Shown here in pieces: positions 31,598-33,707 of a DNA stretch of 64,000 nucleotides (position 1 is its first letter; the number at the start of each line of letters is the position of its first letter). The position numbers were made by a program, and so were the translations under genes. Under the pieces are notes generated by a model that ran no database searches, was not told where the DNA came from, and was given only the letters and a program-made list of their open reading frames with translations. This DNA is from a virus. The stretch is from the UHGV virus genome UHGV-0211472; one strand, given 5' to 3'.

Positions 31598-33628
31598 TTA
31601 ACCTCTATTCAATGAACATTTAGGAGAATTACAATAAACTTGATTCATAGAACCAAGCGTACAACTTTCAGCATCGCGCCACGGAATCTGCTTAAAACAC
31701 TCTGAGCAGTATCCGAGGGTTGACCACATTGCTTTGGTGAAGTCAGTGCTTCGGTTTCCGTCGAAGCTGACAACAGTTTTGCGGAGAGCTGTTCGTAATT
31801 CAGGAAACACACCTGCTTTCTCAGCAGGTTCCTCCTTTTTTGGCTTAGTTGAGATTGCAAAAACACTGTTGCTACGTTTCTCAACATAAGCATCAACAAC
31901 ATCCTCCAGAGTGATGCCTGTCTGTTTCGCTGAGGAAGGTAATACAGTCATACGACCGATCATATCTTCAGTTACACGTAAAGCAAATTCAGGACGACGG
32001 GAGTTTGTTGTATCTGTTGCTTTAATCCAGACATAACCATCTTTGATCGTAGCATTAGATACTTTCTTCTTTACTTCTACAGCGCAGACTTTACAGATAT
32101 CTTCACCACGAAGACGGCTGAGTTCTTCATCGAACTCATTCTCTGTTTTAACTTCACCACAGATTTCACAAACACCAATAGGAGTCTCCTCCTCTTCTTC
32201 CTCTTTAGGTTTAGTCAAACCTTCCAGACATTCAGGATGCCAGTAGCACTGATATGCGAAGACTGCTTTAGGTGCATCCTTCCAATCAATGTGTTTGTCA
32301 CAACCGCCACAATCACCATGAGAATGTGCTTCCCAGAATTTACGAGTGATAGTAACGCCATTCTTGTTAACGAAACTATCATTCATATCAAAAGGGATAT
32401 CATCATCGAAGTCAGCAGTAGTTGACTCAGGCTCCTTTTTCTCCAGAGATGGGTCAACAAAACGACCTGCTGTGATCACTAAACGAACCATAGCATTAAC
32501 TTCGGAGATGCAGGATACTGTCCCACGGTAAACAATTTTAGGATCTTTCAGTGCGTCCTGATAAGCCTTAATGTCTACGTTATGAACATCACCTTCGATA
32601 TACTCTTGAGACTTCTCATCGTAGATATAACCGATCATCTTACCACGAGAAGGAACAGCACCAGAAGTTGCATAAGGAACAAACTCATGCGGAGTGATCT
32701 CTACAGTCATATCGCGACGGATATCAATGTTTCGATCGCTTGCGATTTTGTTTTGACTTACTACTGCGTTTCTTCGACGAACATCTGCCGCTGTCACTCC
32801 CGGCTTCGTGTCGTAAGGATTGCTTGTACTGCTTTTTGAGGAGCTTTGATAGCTGCTTTGGCTGTAGTTGTTCGAGTAGTAACTGGCCCAACGATTGACT
32901 ACCGTAAAAACCGGAAGCTCATGGGCGACCTCTTCAACCAATGTCATGCTATTGTTTGACATGTCAAAGATATACTCTGTACCAACCTTACATTCAAAAT
33001 GCTCATCAATACGGTTCTTGTGAGACTTTGAACGCTTCAGAATCCACATCAGCATATCTTCTTCAGAAGCACCAAACCAATCTTTATTACAACGTGCGAG
33101 ATGGAAAGGACGTTCTTCGTTACGGATGATATGAAGACGGTTATCAGAAGCATCATGCCAGATTAAGGTGAAAGCACCATCCAGCTTTTGAATAGTCTCT
33201 GCTGCACCAATAGTGTTAATAGAGTGGCAGATGTTCTCACTGTCTACCTCGAAGTTTTTACTGTCAGGTAACAGGTCTTGGTCTATCAAGGTTCCGTTAT
33301 GAACCAGAGTGATGTTACCGTGTTGGAAAGGATGGGCGTTCTTGGCGTTAACTGCACCTTTCGTTGCATGACGGCTGTGACCAACAATCCATGAAGGTGC
33401 TACAGTGTAAGATGTTTCACCAGTGGTATGCTTCTTATACTCATCTTGTAGGATGAATGCGAAAGAAGGAAGAGCTTCTTTATAAGTGAAGACTTCCTTA
33501 GTACTTTTACGCTGACCAAAGATACCAGAGGAATGTTGTCCTCGGAATACTCCAGCATAAAAGAGTTGGTTGAATACGTCTAAATCGGTGCTTGACAGAT
33601 TGCCGCCAGCTAATACGATGCCACAAAT
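31598..33628 (-). CDS. class II (Ntn-type) glutamine amidotransferase-like protein with C-terminal Cys-rich domain; apparent AUU start
   Basis: track ORF 31598..33289 is N-terminally truncated; the same frame reads upstream without stops as (M)CGIVLAGG...GQHSSGI...GHSRHATKGAVNAKNAHPF...LVHNGTL (GATase II signature with Cys at position 2) back to ATT at 33626-33628, preceded by AGGTGG with 8-nt spacer and an in-frame TAG; no ATG/GTG/TTG available. Confidence 0.6.
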   Translation of the reverse strand: MCGIVLAGGNLSSTDLDVFNQLFYAGVFRGQHSSGIFGQRKSTKEVFTYKEALPSFAFILQDEYKKHTTGETSYTVAPSWIVGHSRHATKGAVNAKNAHPFQHGNITLVHNGTLIDQDLLPDSKNFEVDSENICHSINTIGAAETIQKLDGAFTLIWHDASDNRLHIIRNEERPFHLARCNKDWFGASEEDMLMWILKRSKSHKNRIDEHFECKVGTEYIFDMSNNSMTLVEEVAHELPVFTVVNRWASYYSNNYSQSSYQSSSKSSTSNPYDTKPGVTAADVRRRNAVVSQNKIASDRNIDIRRDMTVEITPHEFVPYATSGAVPSRGKMIGYIYDEKSQEYIEGDVHNVDIKAYQDALKDPKIVYRGTVSCISEVNAMVRLVITAGRFVDPSLEKKEPESTTADFDDDIPFDMNDSFVNKNGVTITRKFWEAHSHGDCGGCDKHIDWKDAPKAVFAYQCYWHPECLEGLTKPKEEEEEETPIGVCEICGEVKTENEFDEELSRLRGEDICKVCAVEVKKKVSNATIKDGYVWIKATDTTNSRRPEFALRVTEDMIGRMTVLPSSAKQTGITLEDVVDAYVEKRSNSVFAISTKPKKEEPAEKAGVFPELRTALRKTVVSFDGNRSTDFTKAMWSTLGYCSECFKQIPWRDAESCTLGSMNQVYCNSPKCSLNRG

Positions 33629-33707
33629 TTTCTAATCCACCTGAAGGGTAAACCCTTTCATCTAATTAACCTTTAAATTGTGCCCCTTTACCAGAGGCAC
33701 CCATTGA

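Follow-up and report, generated by a model that had tools for sequence, protein, structure and literature searches.

A probable AUU initiation codon and its conserved leader at the glutamine amidotransferase gene of phiEco32-like phages

The window analysed here is the whole 64,000-nucleotide (nt) stretch of the virus genome UHGV-0211472, which comes from a phiEco32-like coliphage (Kuravirus, Gordonclarkvirinae). Its minus strand encodes a class-II glutamine amidotransferase of the N-terminal nucleophile (Ntn) type, the orthologue of phi32_83 of phage phiEco32, and the subject of this report is the ATT codon at which this gene probably starts. The 600 bases around the ATT share 96–97% identity with phiEco32, SU10, ES17 and dozens of other E. 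coli phages. The minus strand reads here, 5′ to 3′, ATG AAA GGG TTT ACC CTT CAG GTG GAT TAG AAA ATT TGT GGC ATC GTA TTA GCT GGC GGC. The following features lie in this region:

33626..33678, minus strand: 53-nt leader (ATTTAAAGG...GAAAATT), 100% identical to that of Suseptimavirus SU7.
33644..33657, minus strand: hairpin AAGGG-TTTA-CCCTT, 1 nt 5′ of the Shine-Dalgarno (SD) sequence (folding and family comparison).
33632..33661, minus strand: small open reading frame (mini-ORF) ATG-AAA-GGG-TTT-ACC-CTT-CAG-GTG-GAT-TAG, 9 codons, MKGFTLQVD*, in frame, with its stop 3 nt before the ATT.
33637..33642, minus strand: SD sequence AGGTGG, 8 nt upstream of the ATT (direct reading).
33634..33632, minus strand: in-frame stop codon TAG (direct reading).
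33631..33629, minus strand: AAA codon between the TAG and the ATT (direct reading).
33626..33628, minus strand: ATT (AUU), the predicted initiation codon; the sole codon directly before Cys1, with the TAG two codons upstream and ATG at this place in relatives.
33623..33625, minus strand: TGT, the catalytic N-terminal cysteine (Cys1 once the initiator methionine is removed), invariant in alignments and aligned to residue 1 of 1xff and 1ecb.
33287..33289, minus strand: TTG, the first canonical start of the frame, from which the ORF list begins the gene; it would give 563 amino acids without Cys1 and lies inside the GATase_6 domain.
31598..33628, minus strand: coding sequence (CDS) of the class-II (Ntn) glutamine amidotransferase, 676 codons plus stop, with an ATT start (reading frame, phiEco32 annotation, Pfam, profile).

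The open frame of the amidotransferase comprises 677 codons, and 114 of them (AAA, ATT and 112 protein codons) precede the first ATG, GTG or TTG. It is the only long ORF of the window with such a long stretch before a canonical start. A preliminary description of this DNA had claimed that the frame extends about 113 codons upstream of the start in the ORF list, up to a TAG, and that it encodes x-CGIVLAGG at its beginning; both the reading of the frame and its translation agree with this. AAA and ATT are the only codons that separate the TAG from the cysteine codon, and therefore the ATT is the sole codon that places Cys at position 2, as the same description had stated. The SD sequence that it had reported 8 nt before the ATT was located at 33642..33637. 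The further claim that the gene initiates at AUU gains support from the conservation of the codon, the coding constraint downstream of it, the alignment of Cys1, the ATG-type relatives and the phiEco32 record, each of which is considered below. An out-of-frame TTG overlapping ATT-TGT was also considered as the true start and was ruled out, as the ATC variants of the family do not contain it.

Sequencing error as the cause of the ATT, an alternative raised in the preliminary description, is ruled out by the agreement of the available genomes. The 32-nt stretch TTTACCCTTCAGGTGGATTAGAAAATTTGTGG is present at full length and at least 99% identity in 97 of the 97 phage records carrying the gene, and a search of the phage records with the ATG version of this stretch gave no match. 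In Privateer, GAP52, SeKF_80 and the IMG/VR contigs L019, L020 and L023, ATG sits exactly at the position of the ATT, directly before TGT-GG. The phiEco32 gene phi32_83 (EU330206 / NC_010324, YP_001671828.1), in a region 96% identical to the window and with an identical leader, was annotated in 2008 from the same ATT as a CDS of 2031 nt encoding 676 amino acids. The ATT start itself is thus already known from the phiEco32 GenBank record. In the literature searched, which did not cover the 2008 phiEco32 paper, no publication discussing or testing the ATT start of phi32_83 was found, and the same literature yielded no N-terminal sequence, toeprint or start-codon mutant for it.

The product of the upstream codons has the properties of a class-II Ntn amidotransferase: the cysteine directly follows the initiation codon, the glutaminase residues are present and the domain scores above threshold. 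Between the window and Suseptimavirus SU7, codons 1–113 show a ratio of nonsynonymous to synonymous substitution rates (dN/dS) of 0.11, with 66% of the synonymous sites differing, which corresponds to saturation. C1, G2, R28, R85, N110-G111 and D128 are invariant in both alignments (A1 and A2), which include homologues down to about 32% identity. The Pfam domain GATase_6 is matched with 54.6 bits (cutoff 27) and GATase_7 with 27.9 bits (cutoff 25); the GATase_6 match covers residues 75–176 and straddles the TTG of the ORF list, which corresponds to residue 113. A single-sequence search against the PDB gave no match, whereas a profile search did: position 1 of the family profile aligns with Cys1 of E. 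coli GlmS (1xff) and PurF (1ecb). Judged by this pattern of substitutions, the 113 upstream codons are coding and under purifying selection.

The distribution of the ATT start was studied in homologues gathered from IMG/VR, metagenomes, GTDB genomes and GenBank phages, in which the codon before the conserved Cys was read. The 163 homologues formed 99 clusters at 70% identity; 70 of these contain ATG only, 12 TTG or GTG only, and 16 contain ATT or ATC. Among the loci, L003 is SU7, L004 is Paul, L007 is BUCT695, and the Pseudomonas phages K4 and FBPa8 are L193 and L199. In every ATT or ATC case that was checked there is either an in-frame stop or no canonical codon upstream, so AUU or AUC is the only route to a Cys at position 2. 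The attributes of a non-canonical start are found together at this gene: no canonical start precedes the N-terminus, an SD sequence stands at functional spacing and the codon is conserved in orthologues. Exchanges of the codon occur even inside single clusters, that is at identities of at least 70%: K4 has ATC where FBPa8 has ATT, L038 has ATC where L123 has ATT and L125 has ATG, and L133, L136 and L139 have ATT where L135 has ATG. ATT and ATC seem to be interchangeable as weak start codons. The very close pairs L193/L199 and L038/L123 differ only by ATC versus ATT at the start and keep the hairpin, which in L123 pairs through a G-U pair and in FBPa8 carries a change in the loop.

The ATT lineages are scattered in the distance tree of the family. 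In the local subgroup, whose branches are better resolved, the clade of Kuravirus and Suseptimavirus groups with the ATG-type contigs L019, L020 and L023, and BUCT695, which has ATT, groups with GAP52, L170 and L171 (ATG, TTG, GTG) in 72% of the bootstraps. Monophyly of all ATT sequences in this subgroup was recovered in 0 of 300 bootstraps. A single origin of the ATT with simple descent does not fit these data. The loci L170–L173 are four contigs of 560–924 nt in the assembly of Herbiconiux daphne CPCC 203386 and carry amidotransferase fragments that are 48–64% identical to the enzyme of the coliphage. Three start codons are represented among them (TTG, GTG, ATT). These contigs probably entered the actinobacterial assembly as contaminating phage DNA and do not represent bacterial genes.

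The weak start codons are accompanied by a local structure. The hairpin of the window, which can be extended to about 33642..33660 with one bulged A, stands immediately 5′ of the SD sequence. The family was therefore scored for a perfect stem of 5–7 base pairs (bp) with a loop of 3–5 nt whose 3′ end lies 13–16 nt before the start, which places it 0–2 nt 5′ of the SD. Such a hairpin is present in 15 of the 18 ATT/ATC representatives and in 4 of the 72 ATG representatives (Fisher p=6e-11). The median local folding energy is −5.95 kcal/mol for ATT/ATC leaders and 0 kcal/mol for ATG leaders (Mann-Whitney p=1e-7). Grouped by start codon, the leaders have the following properties:

ATG leaders: hairpin in 6%; median SD pairing −6.9 kcal/mol.
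TTG/GTG leaders: hairpin in 15% (2 of 13, counted with stems of at least 5 bp); median SD pairing −7.3 kcal/mol.
ATT/ATC leaders: hairpin in 83%; median SD pairing −9.25 kcal/mol.

The SD pairing is stronger in ATT/ATC than in ATG leaders (p=0.0085), and the TTG/GTG leaders fall between the two in how often they have a hairpin, in folding energy and in the strength of the SD. The spacing between SD and start is common to 14 of the 18 weak-start leaders and variable in ATG leaders. More than 13 different stem sequences occupy the same place and all are complementary, among them AAGGG/CCCTT, GAACCT/AGGTTC, AATGC/GCATT, GTAGCC/GGCTAC, CCGGC/GCCGG, AACCTC/GAGGTT and AGAGTC/GACTCT. The stems differ in sequence yet always pair, as would be expected if the structure and not the sequence matters. 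Within the local subgroup, the ATT-type leader corresponds to the ATG-type sister leader with an insert of about 20 nt that creates both the hairpin and a new SD sequence.

Other candidate features of the leader did not hold. The fold of the whole leader is not significantly better than that of shuffled sequences (z=−1.18), and only the local hairpins are meaningful; a predicted outer pairing of UUAAUU with GAUUAG is not kept in BUCT695 or L172. A stop codon in the AT-rich spacer is found in 83% of the ATT/ATC leaders and 62% of the ATG leaders, a difference too weak to make it specific for ATT. A search of the window for the same arrangement of hairpin, SD and ATY codon returned one other match, inside a gene and at chance level. 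The search of the leader against Rfam assigned it to no family, with a single chance-level match (E=0.89). The preliminary description mentions neither the conserved hairpin nor the 9-codon mini-ORF, nor does it note that ATT/ATC recurs in the family.

The sequence of the leader is conserved far beyond its structure. All 53 of its 53 positions are identical in SU7, while 66% of the adjacent synonymous sites in the coding region differ. BUCT695, a phage of a different family whose protein is 53% identical, still gives a 72-nt blastn match of 90% identity that covers most of the leader and the first codons, with only 4–5 changes against the leader of the window. The mini-ORF, whose ATG is at 33661..33659, is found in Kuravirus, Suseptimavirus and the Aeromonas phage BUCT695, and is not general among the ATT lineages.

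As judged from these comparisons, the start codon most likely belongs to a selected module that consists of a stem-loop, a strong SD sequence, a fixed spacer and AUU or AUC, and we consider it highly probable that the AUU at 33628..33626 is the true initiation codon and a part of such a module. The arrangement recurs in about 16% of the lineages of this phage enzyme family, roughly one in six. We propose that initiation at this codon would be SD-directed and de novo. The 30S subunit would bind the AGGUGG sequence, and the initiator formylmethionyl-tRNA would pair imperfectly with AUU. The strong SD and the abutting hairpin might prolong or stabilise the 30S binding, either because the SD is kept unpaired or because the hairpin stacks on the helix of SD and anti-SD. 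Removal of the formylmethionine would then leave the catalytic Cys1 free at the N-terminus, as happens in other Ntn amidotransferases. The weak codon may keep the synthesis of the enzyme low, conditional or both, because AUU and AUC are codons against which initiation factor 3 (IF3) discriminates. The AUU/AUC codon of infC is a target of IF3 control, and mRNAs with an AUU start are poor competitors when the temperature is low, when nutrients are limiting and in the presence of guanosine tetraphosphate (ppGpp) (PMC5499595). By analogy, the module is most likely sensitive to IF3. Weak starts tend toward compensation by stronger SD sequences (PMC5622118), and the graded trend in the leaders from ATG over TTG/GTG to ATT/ATC fits such compensation. 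It is possible, and we suggest this only tentatively, that the module is a dedicated translational control, long conserved or repeatedly arisen before phage Ntn-amidotransferase genes, which would tie the synthesis of the enzyme to the initiation state of the host (IF3, ppGpp, temperature) or to a regulator recognising the 53-nt leader.

Several points weigh against these proposals. The N-terminus at the AUU is predicted from the sequence, and the peptides detected in SU10 attest to the presence of the protein. The ATT lineages L148, L166 and L174 have no hairpin. The family tree is poorly resolved at its deep branches, which makes the number of independent origins uncertain. The suggested regulatory purpose, be it through IF3, ppGpp, temperature or low dosage, is drawn from what AUU does elsewhere. 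Low expression could be achieved more simply by a weak SD sequence, and the pairing of a strong SD with a weak codon is left unexplained. Finally, the invariance of the 53 nt exceeds the needs of a model made of structure and SD, and hints at a sequence-specific partner such as a protein, a promoter or a processing site.

This last point leads to the view that the region of the hairpin and the SD is a translational operator for a phage or host protein, possibly the enzyme itself or a partner in its pathway, with the AUU keeping basal initiation low. The leader is invariant across genera despite saturated synonymous divergence, which is more than structure requires, and the few changes seen in a phage of another family point in the same direction. 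Over the whole family, however, the stem and loop sequences vary and only position and pairing are kept, so that a binding protein would have needed to change along with its target in every lineage; the domain search of the neighbouring genes turned up no RNA-binding domain, and the leader has no counterpart in Rfam. We regard an operator as unlikely. A slightly smaller chance is given to termination-reinitiation, in which ribosomes translate the mini-ORF (or elsewhere an upstream gene), stop at UAG and reinitiate at the AUU 3 nt further on, the hairpin being melted by translation. The arrangement UAG-AAA-AUU resembles the thrS-infC junction UAA-GGU-AUU, where reinitiation gives about half of the expression according to reporter work (PMC3592434). 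The ATG of the mini-ORF is preceded 8 nt upstream by AAAGG, inside the invariant 53 nt, and ORFs ending 3–4 nt before the ATT occur in the window, BUCT695, L047, L077, L036, L145 and L172. However, no ORF with a canonical start ends before the ATT in L133, L139, L174 and L199, and in L038 and L123 there is none of meaningful length. The mini-ORF of BUCT695 keeps its ATG but loses its SD, that of L172 has no ATG, and stop codons in the spacer are frequent in the ATG homologues as well. The mini-ORF may thus add termination-reinitiation to SD-directed initiation in this clade; it would not be required family-wide, and reinitiation contributes locally at most.

The same comparisons bear on the remaining explanations. 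Selection on start codons is generally weak (PMC5622118) and a single base turns ATG into ATT, so the AUU might be a nearly neutral or slightly harmful substitution that became fixed and has no regulatory meaning, with the hairpin an unrelated element of mRNA stability or the remnant of a terminator. Yet one base change would suffice for reversion and no ATG revertant exists in the 97 genomes, ATT or ATC recurs in 16 of the 99 lineages, and the hairpin is tied to the weak starts with a graded trend; such a neutral origin is quite improbable. Translation might also start at the ATG at 33661 and read through the UAG, producing a 12-residue propeptide whose autocatalytic cleavage exposes Cys1 as in B. 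subtilis PurF. The mini-ORF is indeed in frame, and 12 residues are close to the 11 of the PurF propeptide. The window, however, contains no tRNA or suppressor gene, L172 has the double in-frame stop TAG TAA and in L047 a TAA immediately precedes the ATT. In most ATT lineages the ORF close upstream is in another frame and separated by a gap of 4 nt, and the ATG relatives have no propeptide. Read-through is extremely improbable on these grounds. Equally remote is a product that starts at the TTG at 33289, 563 amino acids long and without the nucleophile, with the 113 upstream codons as a decaying remnant. This is the outcome that the preliminary description had named as contrary to its claim; the TTG is the first canonical codon, and several GenBank records, such as that of phage Paul, are annotated in this way. 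The low dN/dS and the retention of all catalytic residues speak against it, the Pfam domain would be cut in half, and none of the genomes examined has a stop or frameshift. A TTG product without the cysteine is effectively refuted by these conservation data.

A selected initiation module with AUU as its start codon would have consequences for annotation. The deposited starts are too late by 113 codons in Paul, 9 in SU7, 10 in BUCT695 and 13 in K4 and FBPa8, where the annotated genes begin at the first ATG or TTG. The amidotransferase is cut short in many phage genomes because gene callers ignore ATT, and the late starts therefore place proteins without the catalytic Cys1 in the databases. They distort functional annotation as well as the protein databases themselves. 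Well-studied bacterial AUU starts are very few (infC, pcnB), and the family adds over 15 leaders with a natural AUU or AUC start, all of which have a closely related ATG counterpart. Two features appear to be undescribed so far: that AUU/AUC recurs in the family together with a hairpin that co-varies with it next to the SD, and that the leader is conserved to such an extreme degree. If the proposed module is real, no natural module for non-AUG initiation that extends over a whole family would have been described in phages before it, and its 15 or more lineages, with ATG-type sister leaders to match, would form a comparative set for the study of bacterial initiation at AUU. The co-varying hairpin makes the use of AUU by ribosomes directly testable with reporters. 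The data suggest that phages may use translation to adjust or switch the supply of one enzyme in the phiEco32-type amidoligase pathway.

Upstream of the leader lie two further features:

33680..33700, minus strand: 8-bp hairpin GTGCCTCT-GGTAA-AGGGGCAC, just past the stop codon of the amidoligase gene (folding).
33708..34811, minus strand: Amidoligase_2 enzyme, the upstream gene (Pfam, phiEco32 gene order).

The counterpart of the first hairpin in SU7 is GCGCTCT-GATAA-AGGGCGC, in which compensatory changes keep the pairing. The element is terminator-like but has no clear U tract, and it may be a weak terminator or an element of processing or stability. Between this hairpin and the ribosome-binding site lies a box TTTAAATGTAAAT(T)AGA (TTTAAAGGTTAATTAGA in the window, 33662..33678, minus strand), which is common to the ATT-type and ATG-type leaders of Gordonclarkvirinae and Grimontviridae (L007, L006, L019, L021, L023, L024). 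The promoter consensus of the phiEco32 sigma factor gp36 is tAATGTAtA, and its six known promoters lie elsewhere (PMC8948821). The conserved box resembles this element without matching it, and a gp36 promoter in the leader was rejected, as the window sequence AAAGGTTAAT matches the consensus poorly. A sigma-70-like promoter antisense to the first codons (33592..33619, plus strand; TTGACA, 16 nt, TACGAT; 10 of 12 matches), which points into the leader, was discarded as well: the region yields 1 such promoter where chance alone predicts 1.4, and SU7 does not keep it.

The genes next to the amidotransferase encode an Amidoligase_2 enzyme, a COOH-NH2 ligase of type 2 and an ATP-grasp enzyme, which together form the phiEco32-type amidoligase cluster (Pfam neighbourhood of PF12224 and PF14395). 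Pfam matches were obtained for the ORFs 33708..34811 and 35435..36241, and 29958..31154 matches weakly. The order of the genes is the same in the window and in phiEco32. The cluster belongs to the early region, and the amidotransferase protein was detected during SU10 infection with 9 peptides (PMC4281155). The C-terminal part of about 450 residues (31598..32900, minus strand) has no Pfam domain match. It contains several CxxC pairs reminiscent of zinc ribbons (CGGCDKH...CYWHPEC, CEICGE...CKVCA, CSECFKQ...CNSPKC). Elsewhere in the window, the major capsid gene (SU10_MCP in Pfam; 57901..58962, plus strand) is followed by an overlapping frame at 58881..60065 (plus strand), which is repeat-rich and Ig-domain-like and opens 55 codons before its first ATG. 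A fusion of the capsid protein with an Ig-like domain by ribosomal slippage at GGGAAAG is known in SU10 and phiEco32 (PMC4281155), and the overlapping frames of the window represent this fusion.

The closest parallel to the AUU start is infC of E. coli, which encodes IF3, uses the same AUU/AUC codons with phylogenetic conservation and shares with the window the geometry of a stop codon, 3 nt and AUU (PMC5499595, PMC3592434). As IF3 itself discriminates against AUU, infC regulates its own expression through its start codon, whereas the product in the window is a metabolic enzyme, and sensitivity to IF3 would be an input and not a feedback. The remark in the preliminary description that AUU initiation is often autoregulatory holds as an analogy only, as the gene encodes an amidotransferase and feedback of the infC type cannot apply to it directly. 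To our knowledge, a hairpin adjacent to the SD is not part of the infC mechanism. In pcnB of E. coli, which encodes poly(A) polymerase I, the AUU limits how much is made of an enzyme whose excess is presumably harmful (Binns and Masters 2002, cited in PMC3592434). The likeness lies in a non-canonical AUU on an enzyme gene; pcnB, however, is a single chromosomal gene, for which a family-wide recurring module of hairpin and SD is not known to have been described. The operator of T4 gene 43 also has a short hairpin directly 5′ of its SD, which is bound by the product of the gene itself, and the gene starts with AUG. The position of the hairpin is the same here (33644..33657, 1 nt before the SD, and in 15 of the 18 weak-start lineages), but its sequence varies between the lineages of the amidotransferase, and a role as operator is putative. 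With GlmS and PurF the amidotransferase shares the fold, the catalytic residues and the need for Cys at the first position of the mature protein. Translation begins at AUG in GlmS and in PurF of E. coli, and the methionine is then removed, and B. subtilis PurF has a propeptide; we know of no use of AUU by either enzyme. In the window an in-frame TAG interrupts the frame before the Cys, which does not agree with a propeptide of the PurF type. The nearest relative of all, phi32_83, is annotated from the ATT in phiEco32, whereas the gene is shortened in many of the later records.

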